From: Alphaproteobacteria bacterium
GTDB lineage: Bacteria > Pseudomonadota > Alphaproteobacteria > G963923945
NCBI GenBank assembly: GCA_963923945.1
Contig: OZ000551.1
Location: 1,752,413-1,816,412 of the forward strand
DNA length: 64,000 bases
Reading direction: 5' to 3'
Part shown: positions 1,833 to 58,318 of the stretch, in pieces
Numbering within the stretch: the first letter of the stretch is position 1
Layout: each line of letters opens with the position of its first letter
Translations under genes and position numbers: made by a program
Notes under the pieces: generated by a model
Databases searched by the model: none
What the model was told of the DNA's origin: nothing
What the model saw: the letters and a program-made list of their open reading frames with translations, nothing else

Positions 1833-2569
1833 CTGAATGATCCTCTTTTTTGGTTTTATTTGGCTTTGTCTCGTTTGGTCTTGTCTCGTTTGGTCTTGTC
1901 TTCATCAACATTGATCTTATGGGGTGGGTGCATCCGGTTGATCCGGTTGGCAACCCGGTTGGGGTGGGGGGCTTCTGTTGCCCGGCGCCCCCCGAGCCGC
2001 GCTTGCTTTAAGTCACCAAAGGACTAAGCAGCGAGAGCCAATTCATTATCGTTGGCATCTATAAAGATGAGCCGTTAACGGCGGCATCCCACCGGGTGAA
2101 AGTCAAGCCCTTTCCACATGCGTCGATCCTGTTTCGCCCCCATTCTTACAATAAATAACCCCAAATAACTCCGAAATAATCCCGCTTATGATTGAGGCAT
2201 CGCTGTCATCATTGAAAGATATTGCAGTCGATATCGTTCATAAAGAGACATCCCGTATCAATGGTGGAGGCGCCGGGTACTGCCCCCGGGTCCGCCACGG
2301 GTCTTGACATGACGTTTATCACCATAGTCGGAAAACCATTGCTGACTAACCGACTCTATGAATATAAACTTTTAAACTTGAGCTTGCAAAGGGCATATGA
2401 CATGACGGCTTAACCCATTGGCGATGGCTGTGGCAATCGGGCAAGCTGCGTTTTTATTGCCAAGCCGATGAATAGATGGGTGAATTGATGAAAGAAAATA
2501 GATCAAAAAATATGACAGTCCGTGTTGTTATTCCTGTTTCATTGATCTGTGAACTGAGTCGAGGACCCT

Positions 2570-3697
2570 TTGGCTGAGACTTTTCATTCCCCCATCGCTG
2601 GCCACCAGTCTGACCAGGAAGAGAGCAAGCCGACCCAACATGGTGTCGGCTCCCATGCACCATCCCGGCGGCTCTCGGCGCAGCAAGAGGTCGAGATTGC
2701 AGACCAAAGAAAGGAAAAAAATCAGACATTGCGCGACTGCGCACCGGATATAGAAGAGCGGCTTTATCATCATATCCCGGTTTTGGATCATGGTTTTGTC
2801 CGGGTGATTGATTATATGGGCACCGATGCTGCCATCGTCCAGGCGGCCCGGGTCTCCTATGGCCGGGGCACCAAAACCCCCAGTCAGGATGGTCGATTGA
2901 TTGATTATTTGATGCGTCACCAGCATTCGACTCCTTTTGAGATGTGCGAGATCAAACTGCATGTCAAATTGCCGATTTTTGTGGCCCGCCAATGGGTGCG
3001 CCACCGCACCGCCAGCATCAATGAATATTCGGCCCGCTATTCGATTTTGGATCGGGAATTTTATGTCCCGGATCGCTTCCATAAAGAAGCCTTGAAAGAA
3101 ATGCTGCGGCCAGACCCGGAAGCCTCAGCCAGTCCGCACCTGGATGTTTTCCACGAGGATTCGAAAAAAACCACCCTGGCCAAGCAATCCTCGACCAATA
3201 AGCAAGGCCGTGGGGATGCGGCTGAGGATGAAACCTTCAATCAGGCTTTGCGGGCCTTGCAGACCGAATCCAACCGGGCCTATACGACCTATGAAAAGCT
3301 TTTGAATGAGCGCGATGGCCAGCCGGTTGATCCCAGCCGTCACGGCTTGGCCCGGGAATTGGCCCGGATGATTTTGCCAACCAATTTTTATACCCAGTGG
3401 TATTGGAAAACCAATCTCCATAACCTGATGCATTTTCTGACCTTGCGGGCTGATCCCCATGCCCAATATGAAATTCGGGTTTATGCCGAGGCGATCATGG
3501 AGATTTTTCGCTGTTGGACGCCGCTGGCCTATGCTGCTTTTATCCGCCATCGCCGCGGCGGGGCGCGTCTCTCGGCCCCGGCCTTGGATGTGGTCCGGCG
3601 GTTGTTGAATGGCGAAAACGTAAATCTTGAGGAGAGTGGTCTCTCAGCGCGTGAATGGCGGGAATTGATGGTGGTGCTGGACCGGCCGGAGGCGTGA
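2570..3697 (+). CDS. thyX: flavin-dependent thymidylate synthase ThyX (start codon uncertain; has internal insertion and N-terminal extension)
   Basis: Contains the ThyX signature RHRTASINEYSARYS (RHRxxxxxS) and the N-terminal HGFVRVIDYMGTDAAIVQAARVSYG block. Confidence 0.85.
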   Translation: MAETFHSPIAGHQSDQEESKPTQHGVGSHAPSRRLSAQQEVEIADQRKEKNQTLRDCAPDIEERLYHHIPVLDHGFVRVIDYMGTDAAIVQAARVSYGRGTKTPSQDGRLIDYLMRHQHSTPFEMCEIKLHVKLPIFVARQWVRHRTASINEYSARYSILDREFYVPDRFHKEALKEMLRPDPEASASPHLDVFHEDSKKTTLAKQSSTNKQGRGDAAEDETFNQALRALQTESNRAYTTYEKLLNERDGQPVDPSRHGLARELARMILPTNFYTQWYWKTNLHNLMHFLTLRADPHAQYEIRVYAEAIMEIFRCWTPLAYAAFIRHRRGGARLSAPALDVVRRLLNGENVNLEESGLSAREWRELMVVLDRPEA

Positions 3698-4166
3698 AAA
3701 CAAAAGGCATGGAGACAGCCAGCGTCAAAATAAAAAAGCCGACGATTTTCTTGACCTGATGTGGTTCCCGGCGCCGGAAGCGGTATGTATAGATTGAGAA
3801 TACTTGTGAAGGAGAGTCGTTGATATGACGGCGGGACAATATGATAACGGGACAAGAGCAAGCACAATGGTTTGGGTTGGCGGCGTTGCTGGTGCATGAT
3901 GCGGCTGTTCAGAGCAAACCCCAAGGTCAAGAACAAGACGGAGCACCAACCTTGGGAAGAGATCGGGGATGTTTCGTGCCGCTGAGTGAAAATCGGTTTT
4001 ACCAGATTTTTAAGGTGAGGTGGGAATTGATAAGCCACGGATCTGGTTATAGTAACGGTCTGGAAAGAGTGAATTGCGCTGGCTTCTTTGCGGCGGCATG
4101 ATGGGGCCGGTCATGTGAGTGGCGACAAAAATAATAGAGTGAAAACAAGAGATTGGAGGGATTGAG

Positions 4167-4970
4167 ATGAATCTTTTAGGTAACGCGGTTCAACGGTTCC
4201 GATGGGCCGGGGTGGTGGTTGTATTGGGGATGTTGATATGCCCTCGCCTTGAGGCGGCTCCCCTTTCCTGTTTTGACTGGGATACGGCTGATTTTTTTGA
4301 GCAAGCCCGTTTGCAGGATGTGACGGCCTGCCTGGAAAAAGGATATGATCCCAATGCGCCTGATGAGTATGGATTGACGTCTTTGCATTTTGCGGCTCGG
4401 CACAGCAATCCAGCGGTGATCACCACTTTGCTGGATGCCGGGGCCGATCTTCAGGTTTTCGGTCCGTATATGAAAACGCCCCTCCATTATGCCGCCCATT
4501 ACAGTCAAAATCCGGCGGTGATCACCACCTTGTTGGATGCCGGGGCCGATCTTAAAGCTCTCGGCGGGTTCTATGGGGAAACGCCCCTCCATTATGCGGC
4601 TCGATTCAATAACAATCCGGCGATCCTCACCACCTTGTTGGCTGCCGGGGCGGATATTCAGGCCCCGGATAAAGATGATGAAACGCCTCTGCATGATGCG
4701 GCTGAATATAATCAAACCCCGGCCGTAATCACCGCTCTGCTGAATGCCGGGGCCGATCTTGAGGCGCTGAATAATCGCGGTGAGACTCCTTTGCATGACG
4801 CGGTTCGGGTCAATAAAAATCCGCAGATTGTTGCCACCTTACTGAAAGCCGGGGCCGATCCCAAAGCCCAGACCAAGGAGGGTAAACAGCCTTGGGAATT
4901 GGTCAAGAAAGACTCACCCCTTTATCAGAGTGCGGTTTATGAGGTTTTGCGGCAAGGCGAGACCGAATAA
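4167..4970 (+). CDS. secreted ankyrin-repeat protein (about 6 ANK repeats)
   Basis: N-terminal signal peptide (VVVLGMLICPRLEAAP); repeated TPLHxAA...NPAVITTLLxAGAD 33-aa units; N and C termini are paralogous to the next gene. Confidence 0.85.
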   Translation: MNLLGNAVQRFRWAGVVVVLGMLICPRLEAAPLSCFDWDTADFFEQARLQDVTACLEKGYDPNAPDEYGLTSLHFAARHSNPAVITTLLDAGADLQVFGPYMKTPLHYAAHYSQNPAVITTLLDAGADLKALGGFYGETPLHYAARFNNNPAILTTLLAAGADIQAPDKDDETPLHDAAEYNQTPAVITALLNAGADLEALNNRGETPLHDAVRVNKNPQIVATLLKAGADPKAQTKEGKQPWELVKKDSPLYQSAVYEVLRQGETE

Positions 4971-5093
4971 CCGGGTGGATGGCGGCGGGTCGGTTGATGG
5001 CATCGGTTCCAAGGCCAGATTATGATGGATGCTTCGCGGCGCTATGATGGGGTCGATTGTTCAATAGATTGAAAAGAGACTGAGGGGGTTCGG

Positions 5094-6938
5094 ATGAAGA
5101 CTTTAGATATTGTCGATGCGGCGCGTTTTATATGCCCGATGACCAAACGGTTCGGCTGGGCGGTTGTGTTGGGGCTGTTGATGCTGGTGCCTGCGCGGGC
5201 TGAGGCGACTCTCTCCTGTTCGGACTGGAATACGTATGATTTTTTCAACCAAGCCAGCCCGCAAGATGTGACGGCTTGTCTGGATGCCGGGGCGGATATT
5301 CAGGCCCGCAATAAGGATGGATGGACTCCCTTACATCTTGCGGCGGGACTCAATGAAAACCCGGCGGTGATTACCACCTTGCTGAAAGCCGGAGCGGATA
5401 TTCAGGCCCGCAATAAAGATGGATGGACTCCCCTGCATCAGGCAGCGGGATTCAATGAAAACCCGGCGGTGATTACCACCTTGCTGAAAGCCGGGGCGGA
5501 TATTCAGGTGCGCAATAAGGATGGATTCACTCCCCTGCATCTTGCGGTGGAATTCAATGAAAATCCGGAAATGATTACCACCTTGCTGAAAGCCGGGGCC
5601 GATCTTGAGGCCCAGCACAAGGATGGATGGACTCCCCTGCATTATGCGGCGGAAGACAATGAAAATCCGGAAATGATTACCACCTTGCTGAAAGCCGGAG
5701 CGGATATTCAGGCCCGCAATAAAGATGGATTCACTCCCTTGCATTCTGCGGCGGGATTCAATGAAAACCCGGCGGTGATTACCACCTTGCTGAAAGCCGG
5801 GGCGGATATTCAGGTGCGCAATAAGGATGGATGGACTCCCCTGCATCAGGCAGCGGGATTCAATGAAAACCCGGCGGTGATTACCACCTTGCTGAAAGCC
5901 GGAGCGGATATTCAGGCCCGCAATAAAGATGGATTCACTCCCTTGCATTCTGCGGCGGGATTCAATGAAAACCCGGCGGTGATTACCACCTTGCTGAAAG
6001 CCGGGGCGGATATTCAGGCCCGCGATAAGGATGGGGCGACTCCTCTGCATTATGCGGCGGGAGGCAATGAAAATCCGGAAATGATTACCACCTTGCTGAA
6101 AGCCGGAGCGGATATTCAGGCCCGCAATAAAGATGGATTCACTCCCTTGCATTCTGCGGCGGGATTCAATGAAAACCCGGCGGTGATTACCACCTTGCTG
6201 AAAGCCGGAGCGGATATTCAGGTGCGCAATAAAGATGGATGGACTCCCCTGCATCAGGCAGCGGGATTCAATGAAAACCCGGCGGTGATTACCACCTTGC
6301 TGAAAGCCGGGGCGGATATTCAGGTGCGCAATAAAGATGGATGGACTCCCCTGCATTATGCGGCGGAAGACAATGAAAATCCGGAAATGATTACCACCTT
6401 GCTGAAAGCCGGGGCCGATCTTGAGGCCCAGCACAAGAATGGATGGACTCCCCTGCATCAGGCAGCGGGATTCAATGAAAACCCGGCGGTGATCAGCAGC
6501 CTGCTGGAAGCCGGGGCGGATATTCAGGCCCGCGCTAAGAATGGATTGACTCCCCTACATCTTGCGGCTCGGTATAATGAAACCCCGGCGGTGGTTACCA
6601 CTTTACTGAAAGCTGGGGCTGATTCTAACGCCCGCAATGAGGATAGGGCGACTCCTCTGCATTTTGCGGCGGGAGGCAATGAAAACCCGGAAATGATTAC
6701 CACCTTGCTGAAAGCCGGAGCGGATATTCAGGCCCGCGATAAGGATGGGGCGACTCCTCTGCATTTTGCGGCGGGAGGCAATGAAAACCCGGAAATGATC
6801 ACCACCCTGCTGAAAGCCGGGGCCGATCCCAAAGCTCGGACCAAGGAGGGTAAACAGCCTTGGGAGTGGGTTCCTGAGGATTCTCCCTTGCGTGAAAGTG
6901 CGGTTTACTGGATTTTGCATGAGGCTCAATTTCAATAA
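5094..6938 (+). CDS. secreted ankyrin-repeat protein with about 15 near-identical tandem ANK repeats
   Basis: Signal peptide (AVVLGLLMLVPARAEA); 33-aa units such as AGFNENPAVITTLLKAGADIQARNKDGWTPLHQA, encoded by nearly identical 99-bp DNA repeats. Confidence 0.9.
   Translation: MKTLDIVDAARFICPMTKRFGWAVVLGLLMLVPARAEATLSCSDWNTYDFFNQASPQDVTACLDAGADIQARNKDGWTPLHLAAGLNENPAVITTLLKAGADIQARNKDGWTPLHQAAGFNENPAVITTLLKAGADIQVRNKDGFTPLHLAVEFNENPEMITTLLKAGADLEAQHKDGWTPLHYAAEDNENPEMITTLLKAGADIQARNKDGFTPLHSAAGFNENPAVITTLLKAGADIQVRNKDGWTPLHQAAGFNENPAVITTLLKAGADIQARNKDGFTPLHSAAGFNENPAVITTLLKAGADIQARDKDGATPLHYAAGGNENPEMITTLLKAGADIQARNKDGFTPLHSAAGFNENPAVITTLLKAGADIQVRNKDGWTPLHQAAGFNENPAVITTLLKAGADIQVRNKDGWTPLHYAAEDNENPEMITTLLKAGADLEAQHKNGWTPLHQAAGFNENPAVISSLLEAGADIQARAKNGLTPLHLAARYNETPAVVTTLLKAGADSNARNEDRATPLHFAAGGNENPEMITTLLKAGADIQARDKDGATPLHFAAGGNENPEMITTLLKAGADPKARTKEGKQPWEWVPEDSPLRESAVYWILHEAQFQ
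5290..6830 (+). repeat. coding tandem array of 99-bp units with higher-order near-exact repeats over 200 bp
   Basis: Direct reading shows blocks such as ...caataaagatggattcactcccttgcattctgcggcgggattcaatgaaaacccggcggtgattaccaccttgctgaaagcc... recurring almost verbatim; the antisense ORF 5331-6458 is a repeat artefact. Confidence 0.9.
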
Positions 6939-8715: not shown

Positions 8716-9115
8716 GATACGGTTTTCATGATGATACGATTTCCATTACTTAAGAGGGTATTTTTAGAAATATTCACGACATGCATATTGTGAATGATTG
8801 CGGTGTTGTGAATGATTGCGGTGTTGGACCTTTTGTCATATAAGGCAAAGTGATTGGAAGTTTATGTTTTTGACATGATTTTGAATGTCTCAATCCTATA
8901 TACTTTATTATGCATTATGAATAATAATTGTATGAATAATAATTGATTGTGGTGCACGGACAATCAATGACGTTCAATAATGATTCATGCAATCATGATT
9001 GATATGAAGATGCGGCCGCAGACAGGTATTTTAATCGGCCCTTCCTTTATATGAGATTTGATTTTGGTGGAACACCACATTTTTGTGGAATCTTCAGTGG
9101 AGAAACAATCGAACA

Positions 9116-11100: not shown

Positions 11101-11203
11101 CGGGTCCATCGCTGATAGGGTGCCGAATTTATGATACCGGGTTGCTCCTTTGGTGGAGGCAATAAACTATATGGTGATGATCCTGTGATGATCCTGTTGC
11201 GCG

Positions 11204-11762: not shown

Positions 11763-13331
11763 ATGTCTTTGTCGCATATGATCACGCATATCACTGTTTC
11801 GCGCCTTGTTATCATCCGTCTTGTTATCATCCGTCTTGGGGCCATTTTTTTGGTCCCGCGCGGTGGGTTCAAGAGGCCCCGCTTAGCGGGTGGTTTTCCT
11901 GTTGCATTTGTGGTTGCCCTGGTTTCCTGCCTGTTATGGGTTTCTCCTAGTGCAGCCCGTCCGGCCCCTGATGGTTTTGCTGATCTGGCCGAGAGATTGT
12001 TGCCTGCGGTGGTTAATATCTCGACCACTCAAGAGATGCAGCAAAGTGAGATGGAGCCCAATTTTCCGGTTCCAAAACTGCCACCCGGTTCCCCTTTTGA
12101 AGATTTTTTCCGCGACTTCATGGAACGTGGTCGTCCCAACCCCCACCGCAACAGTCACTCGCTCGGTTCTGGATTCGTCATTGATTCGGGTGGCTATATT
12201 GTCACCAACAACCATGTCATTGCTGAAGCATCTGAGGTGCGGGTAATCTTCCACGATGGGAAACAACTTGAAGCTGAGGTTATTGGTCGTGACGATAAAA
12301 CGGATTTGGCCCTGCTTAAAGTGGAGAGTGACACCCCTTTGGTTGCGGTTCCTTTTGCTGATTCCGATCAGGCCCGGGTCGGTGATTGGGTGGTGGCCAT
12401 CGGCAATCCCTATGGTCTTGGCGGAACGGTGACGGCGGGGATTATTTCGGCCCGGGCTCGGGATATCAATTCCGGTCCTTATGACGATTATATTCAGACC
12501 GATGCCTCAATTAACCGAGGCAATTCCGGGGGGCCTTTGTTCAACCTGCAAGGTGAAGTGGTGGGCGTTAACACGGCGATTTTTTCGCCAACCGGCGGCA
12601 GTATTGGGATCGGTTTTTCGATTCCGGCCAATTTGGCCAAGCCGGTGCTGGCGCAATTACGTGAGTTTGGTCAGACCCGTCGCGGTTGGCTGGGTGTGCG
12701 GATTCAGCAAGTGACCGATGAAATTGCCGATAGCCTGGGGATGAAGGAAGAAACCGGTGCTCTGGTGGCCAAGGTCAATCCCGGCGAACCAGCAGCCAAA
12801 GCCGGTATAAAACCAGGCGATGTCATTATTGAATTTGATGGCAAGCTGGTGCCGGGTGTACGTAAGCTTCAACGTATTGTCGCTGAAACCGATATCAATC
12901 GACCGGTTCGGGTCACAGTGTGGCGCGATGAGGGCGAGAAAGTCCTGACCGTCACCGTGGGGGAGCTTGAATCCTTTGAAAAGGCGGCCCTCTCGAAAAG
13001 CGGTGATGATACAACCCAAACCACCACCCAGTTTGATGGTATGGGGATGACGCTCTCTTCCTTGACCCCTAATCTGCGCCGCCAATTTGATCTCAAAGAT
13101 GTTGATGCCGGTGTGGTGATCACCGATGTCGATAAAGATGGTCAAGCCGCCGAGCGCGGGCTGCGCCAGGGCGATGTGATTGTCGAAGTGGGGCAAGAAG
13201 AGGTCAATTCACCCGATCAGATCAGTCAAAAATTGGAAGAAGCCGCCAAAAAAGATAAAAAATCTGTGTTGTTTCTGGTCGAACGTGAAGGCGATTTACG
13301 CTTTATTCCGATGAAATTACGTTCGGGCTAG
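11763..13331 (+). CDS. degP: periplasmic serine endoprotease DegP/HtrA (start probably downstream, near the signal peptide)
   Basis: Catalytic triad context (GNSGGPL), trypsin-like domain plus two PDZ domains; signal-like segment AFVVALVSCLLWVSPSAA. Confidence 0.85.
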   Translation: MSLSHMITHITVSRLVIIRLVIIRLGAIFLVPRGGFKRPRLAGGFPVAFVVALVSCLLWVSPSAARPAPDGFADLAERLLPAVVNISTTQEMQQSEMEPNFPVPKLPPGSPFEDFFRDFMERGRPNPHRNSHSLGSGFVIDSGGYIVTNNHVIAEASEVRVIFHDGKQLEAEVIGRDDKTDLALLKVESDTPLVAVPFADSDQARVGDWVVAIGNPYGLGGTVTAGIISARARDINSGPYDDYIQTDASINRGNSGGPLFNLQGEVVGVNTAIFSPTGGSIGIGFSIPANLAKPVLAQLREFGQTRRGWLGVRIQQVTDEIADSLGMKEETGALVAKVNPGEPAAKAGIKPGDVIIEFDGKLVPGVRKLQRIVAETDINRPVRVTVWRDEGEKVLTVTVGELESFEKAALSKSGDDTTQTTTQFDGMGMTLSSLTPNLRRQFDLKDVDAGVVITDVDKDGQAAERGLRQGDVIVEVGQEEVNSPDQISQKLEEAAKKDKKSVLFLVEREGDLRFIPMKLRSG

Positions 13332-21432: not shown

Positions 21433-21685
21433 CTGTGGTGCTGTATTGATATTATTTGTTGTTTTGTGGTAGGTTAGGAGATTAGTTTTTAGTATTGATT
21501 GATCTATAGTCTGTTATTCATTGATTTCTCTATTATTGATTGATATGTCTGTTGATTGACCTATGGTCTGTTATTCATTAATCCATAATCTATTCAATAA
21601 GTTAATCTATTCAATAAGTTATAATTTATCTTTGAGAATTTCGCTGATTTTTTTGATCTGATTTTAATTTCATGGGGGCCTCGCC

Positions 21686-22571: not shown

Positions 22572-23078
22572 ATGATCAATTTATGGCAACGGCTTGACTC
22601 TATGACGCGTGATATCGTGCCCTTTGCGGTTGCGGTGTTTCTCACTCTTATCAGTTCTCTGCCGTTGCCAATTTCTGGCGGTTCGGCGGTGACGCCCATT
22701 TTATCTTTGATTGCATTTTTTTATTGGTATTTGATCCGTCCTGATCTTATGCCGGTTCTGGCGGGTTTTGTTCTTGGGTTGCTTCAAGATATTCTCAGCG
22801 GTGTGCCTTTGGGTCTCCATGCTCTGGCGTATCTTCTTGTTGCTGAGGTGGTGTCCCGTCGTTGGTTTGGACTATCCCGGGAGAGTTTTCGGTCGATGTG
22901 GTTGGGTTTTGCTCTGACGTCTTACGGTTTGGGGATGATCATGTGGCTGTTTTATAGCTTGTTTCACTTCCATTATATCAGCCCGGACATGTATGCTATG
23001 CGTATGATCATCACACTTTTTGCTTTTCCACCTTCGGTTTGGGCATTTGCCGCGATCCACCGTCATATTCTTCGGTAG
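22572..23078 (+). CDS. mreD: rod-shape determining protein MreD
   Basis: Polytopic 168-aa membrane protein after mreC. Confidence 0.7.
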   Translation: MINLWQRLDSMTRDIVPFAVAVFLTLISSLPLPISGGSAVTPILSLIAFFYWYLIRPDLMPVLAGFVLGLLQDILSGVPLGLHALAYLLVAEVVSRRWFGLSRESFRSMWLGFALTSYGLGMIMWLFYSLFHFHYISPDMYAMRMIITLFAFPPSVWAFAAIHRHILR

Positions 23079-23097
23079 GTCATATTCTTCGGTAGGT
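23064..23097 (+). repeat. 17-bp tandem duplication (catattcttcggtaggt x2) spanning the mreD stop / mrdA start junction
   Basis: The first copy contains the mreD TAG (23076-23078); the second copy ends 1 nt before the mrdA ATG (23099). Confidence 0.9.
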
Positions 23098-23098
23098 C

Positions 23099-24970
23099 AT
23101 GATGCGGCGCGAACATACCCGCCATAAGTTACTCACCCGACGCACCATCTTACTCGGTGGCGGCCAGCTTTTGCTGGCGGCTGGTTTGGTGGGGCGGATG
23201 TATCAATTACAAATTCTACAAGCGGATCGTTACGCAGTTTTATCGGATAAAAATCGGGTGAGCCTGCGCCTCATTCCGCCGTCTCGGGGGCGTATTTTGG
23301 ATCGATACGGCAGTTTGATTGCTGAGAATATCTTTGATTATCAGGTGGTTCTTGTTCCCGAACAGACCCCGGATATTGACGAAACGCTGCATCGGTTGGA
23401 AAAAATTTTATCGCTAAGCGCGCGTGAGCGCCAGCGTATTATGCGCGATATACAGCGTAAGCGTGATTTTGTTCCGGTGGTTTTGAAAGAAAATTTGACT
23501 TGGCAAGAAGTGGCACGTATCGAAGTCAATACCCAGGATCTTCCCGGTATTTCGATTGATGTCGGTCAAAGCCGCCATTATCCGATTGGCAGAGCGCATT
23601 GCCATGTTGTCGGTTATGTGGCCGCGGTTTCCCAGGAAGATTACGAGAAAGAGCCTCTCTTTGAGTTGCCCGGGTTTCGGGTTGGTAAAAGCGGTATTGA
23701 GAAGCGCTATGATTCAAAATTGCGTGGCCAAGCCGGGACAAGACAAATAGAGGTCAATGCTCTCGGGCGGGTTATTCGTGAGCTCAAACGTGATGAAAGC
23801 CGCCCGGGCGAAGATTTGGTTCTGACCATTGATGATCAACTGCAGTCTTTTGTCTATGAGCGGGTCCATGCTTTGAATGCCGCGGTTGTGGTAATGGATG
23901 TGAATGATGGTCAGGTTTTGGCTTTGGTTTCGACCCCTGGCTTTGATCCCAATGAATTCAATCAAGGGCTTGATGTCCAAACATGGTCAAATTTGGCCTC
24001 TGACCCCCGAGCACCTCTGATTAACAAGGTTATTTCCGGTCAATATGCGCCGGGTTCAACCTTCAAGATGATTGTGGCTCTGGCCGCTTTGGAGCGGGGA
24101 ATTATTGATCCCGACCTCAAATTTTTTTGCGACGGTGTTTTACAGCTGGGTGATTCAAAATTTCATTGCTGGCGCGAACATGGTCATGGTGCGGTTGATA
24201 TGGAAGCCGCGTTACGGGAATCTTGTGATGTTTATTTTTATAAGCTGTCTCAGAGGCTGGGGATTGAGCCGATTGCCGATATGGCCCGTCGATTTGGTTT
24301 TGGTGAATCCTCGGGAATTGATCTCCCCGGTGAGCAAGCCGGTTTGGTCCCATCTCCGGAGTGGAAACAAGCGGTTGTTGGTCAGCCTTGGCAAAAAGGT
24401 GAGACTCTTCTGGCATCGATTGGTCAAGGGTATATTTTGGCGACCCCGCTCCAATTAGCGGTTATGACGTCTCGTATGGTGAATGGCGGTCGGCCGGTGG
24501 TTCCTTTCCTTGCTTTTGAACCGGGGAAAAATACAGCACCGACCTCGGTTGATAATCTGAGATCCGTGGGGGTTTCTCAGTCTTCCTTGGATATGATGAA
24601 ACAAGCGATGGATGCGGCGGTCAACCAGCCGACCGGGACCGCCTTTGGGTCACGTATTCATCGCCCCGATTATATGATGGGGGGCAAGACCGGGACATCA
24701 CAAGTCCGTCGGATCAGCGAACGGGAACGCCACCACGGCGTGATTAAAAATGAAAATCTACCATGGATCAAACGTGATCATGCCCTGTTTGTTGGTTATG
24801 CGCCCCTGGATAAGCCGCGTTATGCCTGTGCTGTGATTGTTGAGCATGGCGGGAGCGGGGCCAAGGTAGCCGCACCGATTGCCCGTGATATTTTGACCGA
24901 GGTTCAAAAACGCGCATCAGAGCATCCATCGGTTGGGCGGTCCATAGGGGTGCCTTCGCGTGCTGGATGA
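23099..24970 (+). CDS. mrdA: penicillin-binding protein 2 (peptidoglycan D,D-transpeptidase)
   Basis: STFK active site (GSTFKMIVALAALE), SxN and KTG(T) motifs (GGKTGTSQV). Confidence 0.9.
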   Translation: MMRREHTRHKLLTRRTILLGGGQLLLAAGLVGRMYQLQILQADRYAVLSDKNRVSLRLIPPSRGRILDRYGSLIAENIFDYQVVLVPEQTPDIDETLHRLEKILSLSARERQRIMRDIQRKRDFVPVVLKENLTWQEVARIEVNTQDLPGISIDVGQSRHYPIGRAHCHVVGYVAAVSQEDYEKEPLFELPGFRVGKSGIEKRYDSKLRGQAGTRQIEVNALGRVIRELKRDESRPGEDLVLTIDDQLQSFVYERVHALNAAVVVMDVNDGQVLALVSTPGFDPNEFNQGLDVQTWSNLASDPRAPLINKVISGQYAPGSTFKMIVALAALERGIIDPDLKFFCDGVLQLGDSKFHCWREHGHGAVDMEAALRESCDVYFYKLSQRLGIEPIADMARRFGFGESSGIDLPGEQAGLVPSPEWKQAVVGQPWQKGETLLASIGQGYILATPLQLAVMTSRMVNGGRPVVPFLAFEPGKNTAPTSVDNLRSVGVSQSSLDMMKQAMDAAVNQPTGTAFGSRIHRPDYMMGGKTGTSQVRRISERERHHGVIKNENLPWIKRDHALFVGYAPLDKPRYACAVIVEHGGSGAKVAAPIARDILTEVQKRASEHPSVGRSIGVPSRAG

Positions 24971-26099: not shown

Positions 26100-26245
26100 T
26101 GGCGGTTTGGGCTGATTTTGGTTCGGGTTTCTGGTTTAGGTTTCTGATTTAGATTTTTGGTCTAAAAGAAGCCGCGTGTGGCGGTCCTCTCGACAGGGTC
26201 ACCGGCCGATGTTAGAAATACTGTTCCGGCTTGATTATGGTTTAT

Positions 26246-26324: not shown

Positions 26325-26519
26325 CGCAAAATTATTGTTATATATCAATAAATTATTTCTTGCAGCATGTATGTATGTAGCGGGCGGGTTCGTTTTGCAT
26401 CGTTTTTTTGTGGATCACGTTTGTCGCCCTATGGGTGGCAAGGGTGTCAAGAGCTTCTGTTGCCAGGCCTTTTCTAAGGCCTTGATGATCGCTTGATTGG
26501 TTATGAAGGAGGTTTTTTC

Positions 26520-26993
26520 ATGAATCTTTACTCCAGCTTAACAAAAGAGGAAAAGAAAGAGGCCTTAAAAAGGCATCGTGCCTGGTTTCAGGAATGGCAT
26601 TCTCTAAATGAAATCGATAATTATTGGGAATCAAATGGCTGCCAATGCTTAATCTTTGAACCCGGCGGGTCTTTACGTGAAGCATGGGGCTTAAAAGAGT
26701 TTATGCATATATCTAAGGCTGGTAAGGGACGGCTGATCAAGGCTGATAGACCCAACTTTGAAACCGACATATCGGAAATTTGGGAGTTTACGGAAGTCCT
26801 GGATGGTGACCGAAAACGCAACGCTGAACACAAGGAAGCATTGGCTTGGTATCAATCTGGAAAAAGGGGGTCATTTATCAAGGAAGATGATCATGAAGAT
26901 CTGGAGCGTTCGGTTCAAAACGTGCCCAAACGTCTCAAAAAATGTGCAGAGAAAAAGTCCAGAAGTCATATCCCGAGGGCACAAAGCTTTTAA
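26520..26993 (+). CDS. hypothetical protein (islet cargo); possibly continues in another frame to 27214
   Basis: ATG at 26520 preceded by AGGAGG (26507-26512); no recognisable domain; the overlapping +1-frame ORF 26942-27214 could join through the A6 run at 26936-26941. Confidence 0.4.
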   Translation: MNLYSSLTKEEKKEALKRHRAWFQEWHSLNEIDNYWESNGCQCLIFEPGGSLREAWGLKEFMHISKAGKGRLIKADRPNFETDISEIWEFTEVLDGDRKRNAEHKEALAWYQSGKRGSFIKEDDHEDLERSVQNVPKRLKKCAEKKSRSHIPRAQSF

Positions 26994-27384
26994 TTTATCT
27001 TGATGTCATTGGCGGATATTCGGACCGCGCGCGAGAAATTCTGCCATGCTTTGTCCCATCCACGCAACCGGCCAAAGATGCGTTTGCAGAAATATGCATC
27101 CTTTGGGGTGAGGATATCTATCCATTATGGAAGGATGGTATGCCTCACCCAGAAAGAGGTAACTGGATTGAGCGCGACAGTGACGATGACTTAAAAAGAG
27201 ATGAATCAGGATAGGACCAACATTCAGTCGGATTGAGGCGAGATATGTAGGGGGTGTCAATGGGGCAAAATGGCCTACAGGTCAGTTATAATGGAATAAA
27301 AACCTCGCCGGGGTTGCGTTCAGTTTGGCGACCGGTGACGCCGGTTCCGGCGTAGGCTTTAAGATTAACGTCAATCAATCTTGT

Positions 27385-27414
27385 TTGCAGGGGTGTTCCG
27401 ATTTGGGTTATACT
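27385..27414 (+). promoter_or_regulatory. sigma70-like promoter candidate (TTGCAG-N17/18-TATACT)
   Basis: ttgcag at 27385-27390 and tatact at 27409-27414, about 15 nt upstream of the GAGGAG RBS and the ATG at 27429. Confidence 0.35.
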
Positions 27415-27428
27415 GGCCCGAAGAGGAG

Positions 27429-27620
27429 ATGGTGATGACCGAACAAGAACAAAAAGAGTGGGATTTGAAGCTGCGCGAGATTGATGCCCAGATCGCCAAT
27501 TTGAATGCCGCAACCGATAAATTGATCACCGAAAATCGTTGGTATGTTCCAGCCGTCAGTGCTGGCATTGCTTCGGGGGCCACCCTGGCGATTGTGGCCA
27601 TCGTCAAGCTGTTTCTCTAA
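27429..27620 (+). CDS. small tail-anchored membrane protein (coiled coil plus C-terminal TM)
   Basis: MVMTEQEQKEWDLKLREIDAQIANLNAATDKL... then AVSAGIASGATLAIVAIVKLFL; RBS and promoter-like hexamers upstream. Confidence 0.4.
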   Translation: MVMTEQEQKEWDLKLREIDAQIANLNAATDKLITENRWYVPAVSAGIASGATLAIVAIVKLFL

Positions 27621-27634
27621 ACCGCCGCCTTTAG

Positions 27635-28030
27635 GTGTCGCTTTACCCATTATTATCTGATCTCCCGGCCATGTTGACTCGGTTTCTGATTGCGGTTTTG
27701 GTCGTTCTGTGTCTGAGCGTGACTCCGGTACGGGCAGATCGGATTGATGGCAACTGGCTCCATCAAGTCTGTCATGATGGAAACGACCCACAGGCTCCTA
27801 CCGCATGCTCATCTTATATTACTGGGCTGTCAGACGCCTCTCATCCGGCAATCGCCACCAACCTGTTGGGTTTAACCGGCTACTGCCGACCAGAAGGGGT
27901 GACCAGGGGACAAATTATGGACATTGTCAAAAAATATCTTGCCGGCCATCCTGAAGAACGCCACCTCCCGGCGGTGGTGCTCTATTATCATGCCATCATT
28001 GAAGCTTTCCCCTGCACCACGGGTAATTGA
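27635..28030 (+). CDS. secreted cysteine-containing protein resembling the Rap1a/Tai4 (T6SS amidase immunity) family (tentative)
   Basis: Signal peptide; the pattern C..Y.TG..D.......GYC.PEGVTRGQ....VKKYL..HPEERH....VV....A....FPC recalls the Rap1a immunity fold; 15 nt downstream of the preceding small gene. Confidence 0.35.
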   Translation: MSLYPLLSDLPAMLTRFLIAVLVVLCLSVTPVRADRIDGNWLHQVCHDGNDPQAPTACSSYITGLSDASHPAIATNLLGLTGYCRPEGVTRGQIMDIVKKYLAGHPEERHLPAVVLYYHAIIEAFPCTTGN

Positions 28031-28762: not shown

Positions 28763-28911
28763 AAAAACACCCCCACATTTACTTTATTGAGCAATTTTAT
28801 CGTAACTTATTAATATTATTAGCGTCAAATTGCGGCCGCATGGAGCAGTTTTTCAGCGGGACATTTTTTCATTGATTGTGTTGAATAAATTGGCTTGTTT
28901 GGCAGGCCCAA

Positions 28912-34657: not shown

Positions 34658-34857
34658 GCTGTTTGATAAAGAAGTCTGTAATTGAAAACCCTATGATACC
34701 AATCATTCTTGACCGCCACCATCTGTAAGGTGGTTCTGATGAGGTTCTTTTGGCTTGTACATATTTGGTTGATGGGTCACGATACCGCATAATTTATATC
34801 GCATCATTATGAGATTTCTTTTAAGCTAAAATGCGAAAAACGTCAGGATACAAAATA

Positions 34858-34947
34858 TCGGGACGAAAAGTATCAGGACGAAAAGTATCAGGACGAAAAG
34901 TATCAGGACAAAAAGCATCAGGACAAAAAGCATCAGGACAAAAAGTA
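34858..34947 (+). repeat. 6 tandem copies of a 15-bp unit (tcaggacRaaaagYa), with degenerate copies either side (34843-34962)
   Basis: tcgggacgaaaagta tcaggacgaaaagta tcaggacgaaaagta tcaggacaaaaagca tcaggacaaaaagca tcaggacaaaaagta, ending 17 nt before the LysM-protein ATG at 34964. Confidence 0.9.
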
Positions 34948-34963
34948 TCAAAAAGGTGGCGGT

Positions 34964-43072: not shown

Positions 43073-44149
43073 TTATGCACCGGTATTCAAGGACCAACGC
43101 ATTTCCGTTTTGATATTATTGGCCCTATTTTCATGAATTTTAGACAGTAAAATCCATTCATCTTCCGGCATAAAGCGCGGTGCCAGAAAGCTGTATGTAT
43201 CGCGTAGGAGGTTTTCATTATCACGGTGTCGCTGTGCTTGGACCGGTTCCCAACGGGAAAGCATGGTTTCCCAGGCGGTCAAACGGCAATAAAGATAATC
43301 ACGGGTATAGCGGATATAGTCGGTATGACGCTCAATATTGCGCATAACCGAGACAATTTCACCGATATTGGCATCCAGTTCATCGAAAACTTTTTTATAT
43401 TCTTTTATCGCTGTGCTGAGCAGGCGTATAACCGGGCTGATCTGTTCTGATATGCTCAATTCATTGGTGTAGCATTTCAGCAGACCCTCTGCTTTTTGGC
43501 GCATCTTGACGATTTTTTCGAACTCTTGGCGCAGGGCCTCAATATGCGCCAATTCATCGGCCAAACTTTCCACCAGCTCCAGAACCCGTTCACGATTTTG
43601 GTTCTCACCACCCAGGCGGGCGGCCGCTTCATCAAGGGCTTGATTGATCTTATTTTGAATTTTGGGGTCGTCGATTATCTTGCGCAATTTTTCCAGATCA
43701 TTGATGATTTTTTCTTCACCGCTGATCCAGGTAATCAGCTGCACCGTCAGGCGATTACGGGCAATCATGACATGATGTGGCTGGGTTTCCCAGGAGGCTT
43801 CACGTGTGCTCAATTCCGCCGGTAATTTATCACCAATCCGCATGATTTTGACGAATTTGAGGGCCTCTTCAATAAAATCAAGCATACGGCCATCAGCGGA
43901 ATCTTTGAGACCAAACTCCCGCTTGATGCCATTAAAACTGAGGACAATTTGTTGATTTTCTCCGGTGATCTGGAAGGCAAAAACCGGTGAGTCTCCTTGC
44001 TCAGACATACGGAAACAGCCACCATCAGCTGATTGAAAAAATTTGTGGTCAAAGGCGATATGTTCAGGAACCGTGTCGGCGTTTTTAGTCATGATAATCA
44101 GACAAATTCCCAATCTACAAACAGCAACGTCAAAATTACAGAAAAACAA
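43073..44149 (-). CDS. hypothetical protein, coiled-coil rich (start probably at MTKNAD near 44092)
   Basis: About 340 aa; no known domain recognised; AT-rich flanks. Confidence 0.4.
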   Translation of the reverse strand: MFFCNFDVAVCRLGICLIIMTKNADTVPEHIAFDHKFFQSADGGCFRMSEQGDSPVFAFQITGENQQIVLSFNGIKREFGLKDSADGRMLDFIEEALKFVKIMRIGDKLPAELSTREASWETQPHHVMIARNRLTVQLITWISGEEKIINDLEKLRKIIDDPKIQNKINQALDEAAARLGGENQNRERVLELVESLADELAHIEALRQEFEKIVKMRQKAEGLLKCYTNELSISEQISPVIRLLSTAIKEYKKVFDELDANIGEIVSVMRNIERHTDYIRYTRDYLYCRLTAWETMLSRWEPVQAQRHRDNENLLRDTYSFLAPRFMPEDEWILLSKIHENRANNIKTEMRWSLNTGA

Positions 44150-44510
44150 CAGTATTTTCAGTGATGATTTTTCTCATTACGTTATTTTTACACGTTATTT
44201 TTACCGGTGATCATTTTGATGCGATGACCGTTTTCATCTGTGATATCTTTTCGGTATTTGTTTGAGATTTTTTCTCAAAAACCAGTACCAGGGTATTTTC
44301 AATCAATCAGCCTTTAGACATAGATTAAAGGCATACAAAATTAAAGGCATAAAAATACCCATGCATCAGTTAATATATATTGGGCTTGAACGACCATCAA
44401 TCGACTTGGAATTTTTTTCGAGCTCTGGTCGGTGTTGTTCATCTTTAAGCGGCCGCAGCACTCAGACATTTTTTCAGTTGGTTTAAAGAATTGACCGATT
44501 TCAAGCGCGG

Positions 44511-49771: not shown

Positions 49772-50066
49772 AACAGAAAGTGACTCCTTGCGGTAATTTC
49801 CTAGCATAAAATATGCTGGTCAATCGACCCTGATAGAGGCTGAACACCGACCGGACTCACCTGACCGGATGATTCTATACATTCATTTGTGACTGCGGCG
49901 GCTTATTTGCAAGGGTCGGCGTATTGAGGGTCTGGGCATTGATTGATTCCGTAAATATATTGAGAGATAAATAATCACCCGAACAATACATATGATGATT
50001 ATATATGCTGGTGATGGATTGACTGGCCGGGGCTGGATAACCGGGACTGGATAACCGGGACTATGC

Positions 50067-54785: not shown

Positions 54786-54889
54786 TTTTTCTCTGAAAAA
54801 CAACTCTTGCCAGGGGTTTGAATTGACACTCAATGGACTCAAAAATGGATGAGCCTGAAGCAAGAAAGAACAAATAAAGCGATAACACG

Positions 54890-55672
54890 ATGTCCAGAAA
54901 CCCGTTACGGAAACTTCGTTTTCTTATCAGAACGAACGCGCCAATTTGGGCGATCACTACGTATTTTTGTCTCCATTATCGTCATCGTTTGTCGCATAAA
55001 AGAGGTGAATTTAAGAAACTGCAAAAAGATTTTAGAGAAAAATCAAAAAACCTAAAGATTGATAATGATTGGTTTACAGAAAATATCCCGACTTGGTTGA
55101 GAGCATTTCAAGAGGCTCAACTCGACTCTGATCAAGCATTAAAATGTTTAGAGATTGGGAGCTGGCAAGGCTTATCAGCTTTTTTTGTTCTTGATGTTTT
55201 TCCTCATGCACAGATCACATGCGTCGATACATGGGAGGGTGGTGATGAACATAAATCATTTAATGCCTCGACGCCGCAAATACTTGGCGGCATAGAGATG
55301 TGTTTTGATCTGAATCTGAAACAGTTTTCCGATAGAACCAAAAAATATAAAGGGACCTCTCGTTCCTATTTTAATGATCAAATTACCTCTGATGGGTTCG
55401 ATTTGATCTATGTTGATGGTTCCCATCACTGTGATGATATTATGGTGGATGCTGTTCAATCATTTGAAATCCTTAAAGTCGGAGGTCTGCTCATATTCGA
55501 CGATTATTTTTGGGAATATTATGACAATGAAATTGATAATCCCGCTGGAGCGATCAACGCATTTTTACGCTTGAAACGCCATCAGCTTGAAATTATTTGC
55601 TTTGACTATCAGCTCATCATCAGAAAATTGCGCCGCTCAATGAGGATTGAGGGTCCCCATGAGACCAGGTGA
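54890..55672 (+). CDS. class I SAM-dependent methyltransferase (Methyltransf_24/TylF-like O-methyltransferase family)
   Basis: LEIGSWQGLSAFF...VDTWEGGDEH...FDLIYVDGSHHCDDIMVDAVQSFEILKVGGLLIFDDY. Confidence 0.55.
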   Translation: MSRNPLRKLRFLIRTNAPIWAITTYFCLHYRHRLSHKRGEFKKLQKDFREKSKNLKIDNDWFTENIPTWLRAFQEAQLDSDQALKCLEIGSWQGLSAFFVLDVFPHAQITCVDTWEGGDEHKSFNASTPQILGGIEMCFDLNLKQFSDRTKKYKGTSRSYFNDQITSDGFDLIYVDGSHHCDDIMVDAVQSFEILKVGGLLIFDDYFWEYYDNEIDNPAGAINAFLRLKRHQLEIICFDYQLIIRKLRRSMRIEGPHETR

Positions 55673-55991
55673 ATTTGGTGGTTTTTAGAAGGATCTGCGC
55701 AAAATATTTTCCCGCATAATACGCATATGTTTCATACGCATATGTTTCTAGGTGCGATGGCGTTTGAGCACCGCAAAAGGCGTTGATACTGTTAGGGGTC
55801 TGCGTATAGTGCAGAACTTTGATTGCTTCTGGGCGACAAGACCGCTCAAGCCGTTTTTATGAAGGGAATTGACCTCAGCAGTGGAAACCGGATTATTGGC
55901 GTATGACCAGTCTCTGCCTGATTGTCGGGATGTTTCATTTGTCGGCTTTTTTAGACGATACCACCTTTTTTATGATACCGCCATGGATTCA

Positions 55992-56765
55992 TCAATCGGG
56001 TAAAACATACCAGTCATCAAACTGCGAATGAGAAGTTAATATTCTTGTGTAGCCTTGTTTGGTCAGCAATGCATAAATTTTTTCTCGGTTCGATGTGTTG
56101 TTATGCTCACAAGTGATGATTTTGAATCGATATCTTTGGAAGTTCAGAGATTGCAGGATATCCAATTCGCTTCCTTCGGTGTCAATTGATAGATAATCCA
56201 TCATATGTGGAGCGTTATATTTTTCCAACATATCACTGAGGGAGATGGTCAATACCTCATATAAACTGCCATTTTTGCGTGATTTCTTATGCTTATCGCT
56301 GTTAGAAAATTGATCCAAAGTCGATAACCCAATCTGTTTTGTTTCATTGAAAGTCAATGTCGTACCTGTCGTTTTCCATACACAATTCGTTTCAATGTTT
56401 GCCGTCCTATTTTTCTTCAGACAAGCATGGAATTTCTGATCTGGTTCGGCCAAGATACCACTCCATCCGAACCGTTTCTCCAATAAATGGCTGTTGGAAA
56501 AAAGAACACCATCACATGCGCCGAATTCAACAAAATATCCATCACGTTTGAAGCCCGATTTACCCAGCACCAGTAAATCTTGCCCCAGCTGCGATGTGGC
56601 ATAGTCTATATTCTCAAAACAGCGTGCCCAATATTTTTCTTCGATCTGTCGACTGACTTCATAAAGTTGGTATTTTCTCGAATTCTCCAGCTGCTTTTCA
56701 AGAGATGATTTTCGAACAAGTTGACAATCGAATACCCCAAGAATTTTATTGATATAATGTTTCAT
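55992..56765 (-). CDS. FkbM-family methyltransferase
   Basis: FVEFGACDGVLFSNSHLLEKRFGWSGILAEPDQKFHACLKKN and ...LSIDTEGSELDIL are characteristic of Methyltransf_21/FkbM. Confidence 0.6.
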   Translation of the reverse strand: MKHYINKILGVFDCQLVRKSSLEKQLENSRKYQLYEVSRQIEEKYWARCFENIDYATSQLGQDLLVLGKSGFKRDGYFVEFGACDGVLFSNSHLLEKRFGWSGILAEPDQKFHACLKKNRTANIETNCVWKTTGTTLTFNETKQIGLSTLDQFSNSDKHKKSRKNGSLYEVLTISLSDMLEKYNAPHMMDYLSIDTEGSELDILQSLNFQRYRFKIITCEHNNTSNREKIYALLTKQGYTRILTSHSQFDDWYVLPD

Positions 56766-57073
56766 GTTCTTTTTTTATTCTCAGCTGATGCGATTTTTGA
56801 AATGAAAATCCTGTTCATAGGAAATCCTGTTCATAAAGATGTATTTTCAGCAAAACCTTTTTGATATTCTCCTCAACATTAAGGGCGTTACTTGCGCTCA
56901 ATATGCATCTGAGAGACACTCTTTTATGTTTTTTACGGCATGCTCATATGATTTTTTGATCAATGTTTTTGTAAAGGCATTGACGTCTTTTCGTTTCCCG
57001 GTATAGTCCTGTCCCCTTGGCTTCAAGGGGTTGATGCGGCATAAAACAAAATCTATAAAATAACAAAATTTAT

Positions 57074-57161
57074 GAAATAAACAGACAGAATAATTGAAAT
57101 AAACAGACAGAATAATTGAAATAAACAGACAGAATAATTGAAATAAACAGACAGAATAATT
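57074..57161 (+). repeat. 4 perfect tandem copies of a 22-bp unit (gaaataaacagacagaataatt)
   Basis: Read directly from the sequence; about 200 bp upstream of rplU at the edge of the low-GC insertion; no unique spacers, so not CRISPR. Confidence 0.9.
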
Positions 57162-57357
57162 GGCGTCAATTTTCAAGATTATCTGAAATCAGCGCTGTTA
57201 TGAATGTGAGATTCATATAAGATTCATATAAATGTAAAATAAATGTAAGGGTGTGTTGGGTTGGTGATCACTCCTTAATGATTGGGGTCTTTTCTTGGTC
57301 GTTATCCCTGAGTTTTTATGCATATTTTTAAGGGACTGTTTTTTTAAGGATTGTTTG

Positions 57358-57912
57358 ATGTATGCCATTATCCGCACCGGTGGGAAGCAATATAAAGTTG
57401 CCAAAGATGATGTGATCGCGGTTGAAAAAATCGCCGCTGATCCCGGTCAATCCATCACATTAAATGATGTGTTGGCTCTTGGTGATGCGGGATCGATAAC
57501 CCTGGGTTCGCCCATAGTTGCCGGGGCGGAGGTCAAAGCCGAAGTGGCCGAACAAACAAGGGGTGACAAGATCATTGTCTTTAAGAAGAAGCGGCGTAAA
57601 AATTATCGCCGTAAATACGGCCATCGTCAGTGCCTCACCATGCTGAAGATTGTTGATATCAAGGCGGCAGGTAAAGCGGTTGTTAAAAAGACTGCCAGCG
57701 AGTCATCGGAACACTCATCATCCAAAAAACCAGCGCAAGCAAAATCCAACAAGAATACAACAGATATAAAAAATCCGACAAAAAAGAAAACCGCTGCCAA
57801 AAAAGCAGTCCAACAATCATCACCCTCTGTTCAGCCAGGTGATGATGCTGAAAAAACGGCGACAGTAAAAAAGCAAACTTCGGGTAAGGCGGCTCAAAAA
57901 ACCCAATCTTAA
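57358..57912 (+). CDS. rplU: 50S ribosomal protein L21 with a Lys/Ala-rich C-terminal extension
   Basis: [25 protein letters not shown]...; start taken at the internal Met of the track ORF. Confidence 0.85.
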
Positions 57913-57972
57913 GAAAATTTGAGTTTTAAGGAAATTAGGCCTTAAGCAAGCTTCAAGAAGGAGTGATCCGGC

Positions 57973-58233
57973 ATGGCGCATAAGAAATCGGGTGGCAGTT
58001 CACAAAATGGCCGCGATACCATCGGTCGCCGCCTTGGGGTCAAAAAATTTGGCGGTGAGCGGGTGGTTCCGGGAAATATTTTGGTCCGTCAGCGTGGGTG
58101 TCGATTCCACCCCGGGGACAATGTCGGTATGGGGCGTGATCATACCCTCTTTGCTCTCAAAGAAGGACATGTTACCTTCCCGCGTAAGTCTGGAGGACGG
58201 GTTTTGGTGGCGGTGCAGCCCTTGGCTGACTGA
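57973..58233 (+). CDS. rpmA: 50S ribosomal protein L27
   Basis: [31 protein letters not shown]... Confidence 0.95.
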
Positions 58234-58267
58234 ATTCCCCGTCCTGGCGGCGGCTTTTGGTTTTGGC

Positions 58268-58318
58268 CGCTACCAAGTGGCGGCTTTCAGTCAGTCGCTA
58301 CCAAGTGGCGGCTTTTAA
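58268..58318 (+). terminator. paired terminator-like hairpins formed by a duplicated 20-bp unit after rpmA
   Basis: cgctaccaagtggcggcttt occurs twice (58268-58287 and 58296-58315); each copy can form a GC-rich stem, (G[CT]CGC)-taccaagtg-GCGGC, followed by a T tract. Confidence 0.35.

Follow-up and report, generated by a model that had tools for sequence, protein, structure and literature searches.

Young short tandem duplications in the spacers of a small-genome alphaproteobacterial clade, probably of replication-associated origin

In a 64,000-nucleotide stretch of DNA from an uncultured alphaproteobacterium (assembly GCA_963923945.1, contig OZ000551.1, positions 1,752,413 to 1,816,412; hereafter the window), short units are repeatedly copied head to tail in the DNA between genes. 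Such tandem duplications (TDs) raise the question of whether they are scattered accidents or the trace of a process that belongs to the lineage, and what that process might be. The TDs exist, exceed chance, are specific to a clade, were recently gained and are filtered by selection. The best reading is that replication-associated short duplications arise at a higher rate, or are retained more often, in the AT-rich non-coding DNA of the whole clade, and that they seed small arrays. Overall, the TDs are considered, with moderate confidence, to be genuine and mostly very young de novo duplications of 11-22 bp that result from replication-associated misalignment. Events of this broad kind are already known; what stands out is how strong the enrichment is, how tightly the units keep to 11-22 bp and how little microhomology there is.

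Repeats were detected with Tandem Repeats Finder (TRF) over the whole window, an exact-period scan of our own, direct reading and a repeat search. The main count comprises perfect TDs with a unit of at least 11 bp. All eleven duplications listed in the original prediction exist according to TRF, the exact-period scan and direct reading, with small coordinate corrections. The item placed at 11797-11822 is a real duplication, but its true span is 11805-11838. Five perfect duplications had been overlooked (at 11174, 21586, 44179, 50033 and 57209), as had several near-perfect ones. In total, 14 perfect TDs with units of 11-22 bp were counted in the window, whereas 100 order-3 Markov simulations of it gave 0.09 on average and at most one. 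Only periods of about 9-22 bp are in excess; the most frequent period is 15, the median unit is 15 bp, and the units are AT-rich (GC 0.36). Periods of 2-5 bp stand at expectation in the window (1783 against 1780, 1017 against 958, 214 against 245, and 50 against 59). Since there is no surplus at these periods, the signal is not of the microsatellite or mismatch-repair type. MutS does not recognise loops of 11-22 nt. Because of this loop size and the flat 2-5 bp spectrum, on which the mismatch-repair explanation was rejected, the suggested link to a lesion in that pathway is unlikely.

The comparison with other genomes was based on syntenic stretches from three relatives, reached via three protein searches and contig look-ups. 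Relatives A and B stand at 80-89% protein identity to the window overall. Relative A is represented by ERZ25067576 ctg10958, a circular contig of 2.07 Mb, and has protein identities of 85-86% (stretches L006 and L008). Relative B is represented by a contig of 71 kb with a GuaA identity of 89% (stretch L009), and a more distant relative at 67-79% identity by stretches L007 and L010. The next alphaproteobacterial relative, L001, is the nearest species representative in GTDB, and a GTDB genome scan gave it a PBP2 identity of just 55%. Four unrelated bacteria (L002-L005), 100 kb of E. coli K-12 and 50 kb of Sinorhizobium pSymB were used as further outgroups. Named protein matches would place the clade among Rhodospirillales-like alphaproteobacteria.

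Perfect TDs with units of at least 11 bp number 14 in the 64 kb of the window, 11 in 43.4 kb of relative A and 2 in 20.2 kb of relative B. Pooled, the clade thus has 27 in 127.6 kb, compared with about 0.1 expected. None was found in the distant relative (28.2 kb), L001 (21.9 kb), E. coli K-12 (100 kb) or pSymB (50 kb), and the unrelated bacteria L002-L005 gave a single one, with a 30-bp unit, in 36.7 kb. Perfect TDs of 11-22 bp are therefore absent from 186.8 kb of outgroup DNA (P = 2.7e-11 against the clade), or 236.8 kb when pSymB is included. A more tolerant density count (TRF arrays with a period of 9-30 and a score of at least 40, per 10 kb) gave 4.7 for the window, 7.3-8.8 for relative A and 6.0 for relative B. 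Outside the clade, the values were 1.2-3.6 in the distant relative, 1.8 in L001, 0-2.6 in L002-L005 and 0.1 in E. coli. Because of these TRF densities, the TD habit is assigned to a narrow clade, of which it is a property, with perhaps a weaker echo in the next relative. The claim that the duplications are lineage-specific and not isolated events is thereby borne out: relatives A and B carry TDs of the same kind and density at other sites, and the distant relative and the unrelated bacteria are without them.

The window and its relatives A and B have their TDs at different positions. Cross-genome alignment of the spacers is clean only at the mreD/mrdA junction, the coding array of an ftsJ-like gene and a site in an S41 peptidase gene; the other spacers are too diverged. 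At the first of these sites, the 17-bp TD of the window is single-copy in relative A (L006) and was thus gained in the window's lineage. Conversely, the ftsJ-like gene of relative A contains a 15-bp unit in about five copies where the window and B have one, and A's S41 peptidase gene has a 12-bp TD that both of them lack. Individual TDs that are single-copy in sister genomes are therefore recent gains. Moreover, some spacers have received TDs independently in different genomes. In front of the ftsJ-like gene lies a 14-bp TD in the window, which is absent in A and B, and a separate 15-bp array in relative A. The spacer upstream of the gene at 43073-44149 holds a 13-bp TD in the window and a different, 21-bp TD in relative A. 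In the spacer of the LysM-domain gene, the window has a 15-bp unit repeated seven times at the start codon; relative A is without an array at that position and has an unrelated 14-bp unit, repeated eight times, about 300 bp further up. Multi-copy arrays of 3-8 copies are thus present, and they differ between relatives.

Older, partly decayed duplications share spacers with young TDs. TDs with zero, one and two mismatches number 15, 6 and 17 in the window (0, 0.9 and 10.2 expected) and 14, 14 and 36 in relatives A and B together (0, 1.1 and 11.1 expected). This series suggests that many TDs persist long enough to gather substitutions. Among indels of at least 6 bp taken from BLAST gaps between the three genomes, 7 of 88 gaps are tandem, a count to be read with the ambiguous placement of gaps at about 80% identity. 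In L007 (labelled 2x coverage; 981-2565 and 3931-4789) and L009 (11472-12642), the leuA, mreC and obg genes are called in two fragments. These split calls are probably frameshift errors or pseudogenes, so both contigs need care in indel analyses.

The location of the TDs points to a filter. Eleven of the 13 TD loci in the window are wholly intergenic, as compared with 16.7% intergenic DNA in the gene map (binomial P = 1.6e-7). This intergenic fraction amounts to 10.7 kb at a coding density of 83%, with a median spacer of 174 bp, and has a GC content of 0.425 versus 0.521 in genes. The label "intergenic" in the original prediction is thus right for 11 of 13 loci. Borderline are the mreD/mrdA junction, where both reading frames are intact and neither protein is altered, and 11805-11838, which falls in an N-terminal extension of the degP open reading frame (ORF) that is probably spurious. 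When TDs with at most one mismatch are considered, the unit is divisible by three in 11 of 12 cases inside genes and in 13 of 38 between genes, the latter being the random third (Fisher P = 6e-4). The sole genic TD with a unit not divisible by three lies in a 102-codon ORF without a domain match. Per kb, there are about 1.6 TDs in the DNA between genes and 0.12 in the genes themselves. Selection filters the TDs.

The reading-frame filter also bears on a more trivial origin. Long-read assembly artefacts could generate false repeats, and mobile elements could leave target-site duplications as footprints. The contig names of the relatives resemble those of long-read metagenome assemblies, and some mobile elements make long target duplications. 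However, respect for the reading frame inside genes implies that the TDs are not sequencing or assembly artefacts. The signal is common to three independent assemblies, and together with the frame filter this rules out the artefact that the original prediction had raised against itself. Furthermore, decayed copies exist, and unit lengths vary continuously over 11-22 bp, while transposon footprints are expected to have a fixed length. Neither the scanned proteins of the window nor the precomputed Pfam matches for the called genes of the relatives include a transposase, a negative that covers five window ORFs and many genes of the relatives with no Pfam match at all. An origin from artefacts or mobile-element footprints is accordingly extremely improbable.

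As for the mechanism, we infer that slippage is responsible and that TDs are generated more often, not just better preserved. TDs would arise continually in a small-genome, Rhodospirillales-like alphaproteobacterial clade when a newly made strand slips back by one to two helical turns, anneals there with hardly any homology or none, and the segment is copied a second time. Slipped-strand mispairing of the ordinary kind may enlarge some of the resulting pairs to arrays of 3-8 copies, and point mutation would then erode the arrays. TDs would survive where they are harmless, that is, in AT-rich non-coding DNA, at gene junctions and in frame inside genes. The outcome would be a rapid turnover of intergenic DNA rather than functional elements. 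The original prediction had offered slippage or template switching. Of these, slippage is plausible, although microhomology is only weakly above chance, and template switching at quasi-palindromes is without support.

Several points weigh against slippage at a raised rate. Classical slippage between non-contiguous short repeats predicts microhomology at the junction. Microhomology was measured as the extra periodic bases beyond the unit in 19 clean two-copy TDs, with simulated duplications at nearby positions as the null. Its mean is 1.47 bp compared with 0.85 bp under the null (P ~0.04). It is nil in 8 of the 19 (42%) and at least 3 bp in 4, with 4-6 bp in three cases; the signal comes from the window alone, being essentially nil in relatives A and B. 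Simple slippage does not predict the narrow band of units either: units shorter than 9 bp are hardly in excess, and perfect TDs of 23-80 bp are absent. Hairpin formation or stalling was tried as a candidate and rejected. With the TDs collapsed, the surrounding 50-nt segments are less stably folded than the DNA next to them (mean z = +0.8), a test that leans toward less stable TD sites because the neighbouring DNA includes GC-richer coding sequence. Lastly, the sampled DNA covers only 128 kb of genomes of about 2.1 Mb, and population or whole-genome data are required to distinguish a raised mutation input from weaker purging.

The weak microhomology and the narrow length band make a homology-independent route a serious rival, albeit an unlikely one. 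Unprocessed 5' flaps might be ligated during Okazaki-fragment maturation, for example owing to a weakened Pol I 5'-nuclease, FEN or RNase H, or staggered nicks 11-22 nt apart might be filled in and rejoined. Either version would account for a characteristic length. Bacterial RNA primers are about 10-12 nt long, and the TD unit lengths are close to this. Most junctions show 0-1 bp of microhomology, and the units keep to 11-22 bp with a median of 15. On the other hand, a few TDs of the window have 4-6 bp of microhomology, and recJ, the sole relevant repair or replication gene in the window, is intact; polA, xni and rnh lie outside the window. The signature of the rad27 type is described as flanked by short direct repeats, and most TDs here are not so flanked. 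In yeast, loss of RAD27/FEN1 leads mainly to repeat-related expansions of 5-108 bases, which were ascribed to flap ligation (PMC5490271). Fill-in and rejoining of staggered nicks has been proposed for rice (PMC8639346). A stronger proposition is a distinct process of the clade with a built-in length of about 11-22 nt, independent of homology (primer-length flap ligation or staggered-nick fill-in), that continually rebuilds the spacers; this is quite unlikely. If true, the short TD would be the dominant insertion type, at about one per 30 substitutions in spacers, a figure which is our own estimate and assumes neutrality and no reversion.

The same estimate helps to weigh a demographic explanation, according to which mutation input is ordinary and TDs pile up only because, in a probably host-associated lineage of small population size, neither purifying selection nor a bias toward deletion acts strongly on non-coding DNA. 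The genome is small, at about 2.1 Mb, and ankyrin-repeat proteins and autotransporters suggest host association. TDs decay via point mutation instead of vanishing. The spacers are somewhat longer than those of the relative at 67-79% identity (253 versus 163 bp between mreB and mreC, about 400 versus 220 bp between apbC and hflK). Nevertheless, the neutral ratio of young TDs to substitutions is independent of population size. A pair of 15-bp copies drops out of the "perfect" class about 30 times as fast as a single site changes, so the roughly 12 perfect loci in 10.7 kb of spacer translate into about one TD per 30 point substitutions, which is seemingly too high for ordinary input. Moreover, no such TD occurs in 150 kb of E. 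coli and Sinorhizobium DNA, and the coding density of 83% is unremarkable. Weak selection alone seems insufficient, and this explanation is distinctly unlikely. Slippage at a raised rate remains the preferred reading.

The possibility that the repeats are functional has to be weighed as well, as they could be reiterated protein-binding sites, iterons or phase-variable switches under selection. Many TDs lie upstream of genes, and a few are multi-copy (22 bp four times upstream of rplU, 15 bp seven times upstream of the LysM gene). A scan of 55.6-58.4 kb for promoter and terminator consensus sequences gave one weak promoter-like match overlapping 57212-57240 and no usable sign of TDs duplicating promoter elements. 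TDs are found upstream of genes, past stop codons and between convergent genes. Since they also occur in the latter two settings, they are not tied to promoters. No obvious common motif or nicking-site motif was seen in the units and flanks. The words GATGAT/ATCATC and TGATTG recur in units (window 8788, 11174 and 11805; L008 2770, 9144 and 17561; L009 18214). The neighbouring genes have housekeeping functions and are not surface or restriction genes. The units of 11-22 bp also differ from the 1-8 bp typical of contingency loci. Above all, neither position nor sequence is conserved in the sister genomes, which largely refutes a functional role and leaves it very improbable. The regulatory consequence of the TDs that the original prediction had envisaged is speculative.

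Several known systems resemble what is seen here, and the pattern is best grouped with the formation of bacterial variable-number tandem repeats (VNTRs) or minisatellites and with genomes whose non-coding repeats turn over actively. As in VNTRs, head-to-tail units of at least about 9 bp occur beyond chance, their presence and copy number differ among the window, A and B, and they are mostly non-coding and in frame when coding. Contingency loci of Neisseria and Haemophilus have units of 1-8 bp in many copies, are tied to genes for surface, restriction or virulence functions and persist as conserved loci. The TDs share with them the vicinity of promoters and gene starts and could change expression via copy number. 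They differ in having 11-22 bp units, mostly two copies, housekeeping neighbours and sites that are not conserved between relatives. The repeat units of Ehrlichia ruminantium are often much longer, in contrast to the mostly bare two-copy duplications with 11-22 bp units found here. That species is the textbook case among alphaproteobacteria of tandem repeats that turn over actively in non-coding DNA (PMC10710844, which cites Collins 2005 and Frutos 2006). The likeness includes a small alphaproteobacterial genome, head-to-tail repeats concentrated in non-coding DNA, copy numbers that vary between relatives and repeats that go on expanding and contracting. Its coding ratio of about 64% is due to long, repeat-laden intergenic regions (PMC10710844), versus a coding density of 83% here.

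Other parallels concern the birth of duplications. The spacer indels of chloroplasts comprise similar tandem-copy insertions. In plant mitochondria, AT-rich non-coding insertions are often tandem copies of adjacent sequence of about 5-30 bp, with a rapid turnover of spacers (PMC8639346). There, however, the length of the microhomology correlates with that of the duplication (PMC8639346), and the genome type as well as the replication and repair machinery differ. Microhomology-mediated tandem duplications (MTDs), which go with the slipped-strand model of "minisatellite birth", are likewise de novo short TDs with insertions of at least 10 bp, and the events seen in coding sequence are frame-keeping ones (Dan et al. 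2021, PMC8639346). Unlike the TDs of the window and its relatives, MTDs are defined by exact microhomology pairs of at least 3 bp flanking the unit; only 4 of the 19 two-copy TDs have 3 bp or more and 8 have none. MTDs also have a high reversion rate (PMC8639346). Flap-endonuclease deficiency (yeast rad27; bacterial Pol I 5'-nuclease) produces short duplications in an overlapping size range of 5-108 bases, which arise during lagging-strand maturation (PMC5490271). The TDs here keep to a much smaller range of lengths and mostly have no direct repeats at their flanks, and a nuclease defect behind them is hypothetical.

The duplications are distributed over the whole window. Near its start, the 130-bp gap that separates the start of sspB (1832, minus strand) from the tmRNA gene's 3' end holds a perfect 15-bp unit, TTGTCTCGTTTGGTC, in 2.4 copies (1866-1901), with a degenerate copy upstream (1851-1865). 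A separate 9-bp unit is doubled in the same gap (1932-1949). The tmRNA gene (1963-2393, minus strand) is of the two-piece permuted alphaproteobacterial type (Rfam RF01849, 217 bits) and adjoins sspB (1338-1832). Two perfect TDs share the spacer between the divergent apbC/mrp and hflK genes: the 18-bp unit TTGTGAATGATTGCGGTG in 2.2 copies (8788-8826) and the 15-bp unit TATGAATAATAATTG in 2.0 copies (8916-8945). At 74 bp 3' of hflC, the 11-bp unit GTGATGATCCT is present in 2.2 perfect copies (11174-11197), one of the TDs added to the initial list. The 15-bp unit CTTGTTATCATCCGT, in 2.3 perfect copies (11805-11838), lies 5' of the likely true start of degP/htrA, inside the doubtful ORF extension.

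In the cell-shape genes, the mreB-mreC spacer contains the previously overlooked 17-bp unit TAATCTATTCAATAAGT in 2.1 perfect copies (21586-21621) and an older, diverged duplication (21495-21525 versus 21552-21582, 90% identity, 57 bp apart). The 17-bp unit GTCATATTCTTCGGTAG, in 2.3 perfect copies (23062-23100), doubles the junction between the mreD stop and the mrdA start. Between rodA and tRNA-Lys, a 13-bp unit in 2.8 copies with 82% matches (26126-26161) represents an older event. The array at the LysM-domain gene comprises 7.2 copies of a 15-bp unit with 90% matches (34843-34950), including perfect sub-arrays at 34861-34909 and 34902-34945, and its insertion separates a conserved stretch on the 5' side from the gene's ribosome-binding site and start codon. 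The 13-bp unit ACGTTATTTTTAC, also new to the list, occurs in 2.0 perfect copies (44179-44204) at 30 bp upstream of the minus-strand gene 43073-44149, near a 16-bp duplication of 2.1 copies with 94% matches (44324-44356). Directly 5' of the ftsJ/rlmE-like gene, a 14-bp unit in 2.6 copies (50027-50062; perfect over 50033-50062, 2.1 copies) had equally been overlooked.

The densest duplication cluster of the window lies in the guaA-rplU interval, which varies between genomes (window 54786-57294; L008 11552-14208; L009 10166-10552). In the window, this interval carries two methyltransferase genes (Methyltransf_24 and the FkbM-type Methyltransf_21). Relative B has a 388-bp spacer alone, and relative A has 2.6 kb with an inverted partial copy of rplU (L008 13619-14077). 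The 15-bp unit ATACGCATATGTTTC, in 2.0 perfect copies (55719-55748), is placed between the two convergent methyltransferase genes. At 56806-56835, the 14-nt sequence AAATCCTGTTCATA occurs twice with a 2-nt spacer and a period of 16, a slightly decayed duplication that TRF missed. Upstream of rplU, the segment 57045-57162 begins with a 17-bp unit in 2.1 copies (89% matches), followed by the 22-bp unit TGAAATAAACAGACAGAATAAT in 4.1 perfect copies (57073-57162). Adjoining 11-bp duplications follow at 57209-57248, namely AGATTCATATA in 2.1 copies (57209-57231, the last of the overlooked TDs) and ATAAATGTAAA in 1.9 copies. Downstream of rpmA, the 20-nt sequence CGCTACCAAGTGGCGGCTTT is present twice with an 8-nt spacer and a period of 28 (58268-58315), again missed by TRF. 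It is a doubled terminator-like GC-rich hairpin with a T-run, and a third copy, 70% identical, is found at 58238-58257. The terminator downstream of rpmA appears to have been multiplied via the same duplication process as the other TDs.

The genes of the window are of a housekeeping nature and include the permuted tmRNA, sspB, thyX, two ankyrin-repeat proteins, apbC, hflKC, degP, ilvIHC, leuA, mreBCD-mrdA-rodA, recJ, an AcrB-type pump, guaB, guaA, rplU-rpmA-obg-proB and an autotransporter. Thymidylate synthesis appears to rely on the flavin-dependent ThyX (Pfam Thy1; 2570-3697). The two ankyrin-repeat genes are adjacent (4167-4970 and 5094-6938), and the second has about 15 near-identical repeats of 102 bp, or 34 residues (TRF 5286-6827, 84% matches). 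The autotransporter gene (62874-64000) is cut by the window end. Relative B has two tandem autotransporter paralogues (L009 16522-17841 and 18395-20140), and both match the same window sequence at 83% and 77% nucleotide identity. The ankyrin-repeat proteins, the autotransporter genes and the genome of about 2.1 Mb together suggest a host-associated lifestyle. The interval from tRNA-Lys to recJ (window 26350-31000; L006 13230-15460) is not syntenic with relative A. It encodes a Rap1a-type immunity protein (27635-28030), a DUF1902 protein (28481-28762), tRNA-Glu and an aldehyde dehydrogenase in the window, and relative A has an FkbM-type methyltransferase in place of this gene set.

If the pattern is genome-wide, these bacteria would offer a natural case in which one insertion class, TDs of 11-22 bp with little microhomology, dominates the evolution of non-coding DNA. 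It would explain why spacers cannot be aligned between genomes whose genes are about 80% identical, and the duplications would be ready strain-typing markers for an uncultured organism. Combined with an inventory of repair genes, the clade would be a natural experiment on the replication or repair step that normally suppresses such duplications in bacteria.

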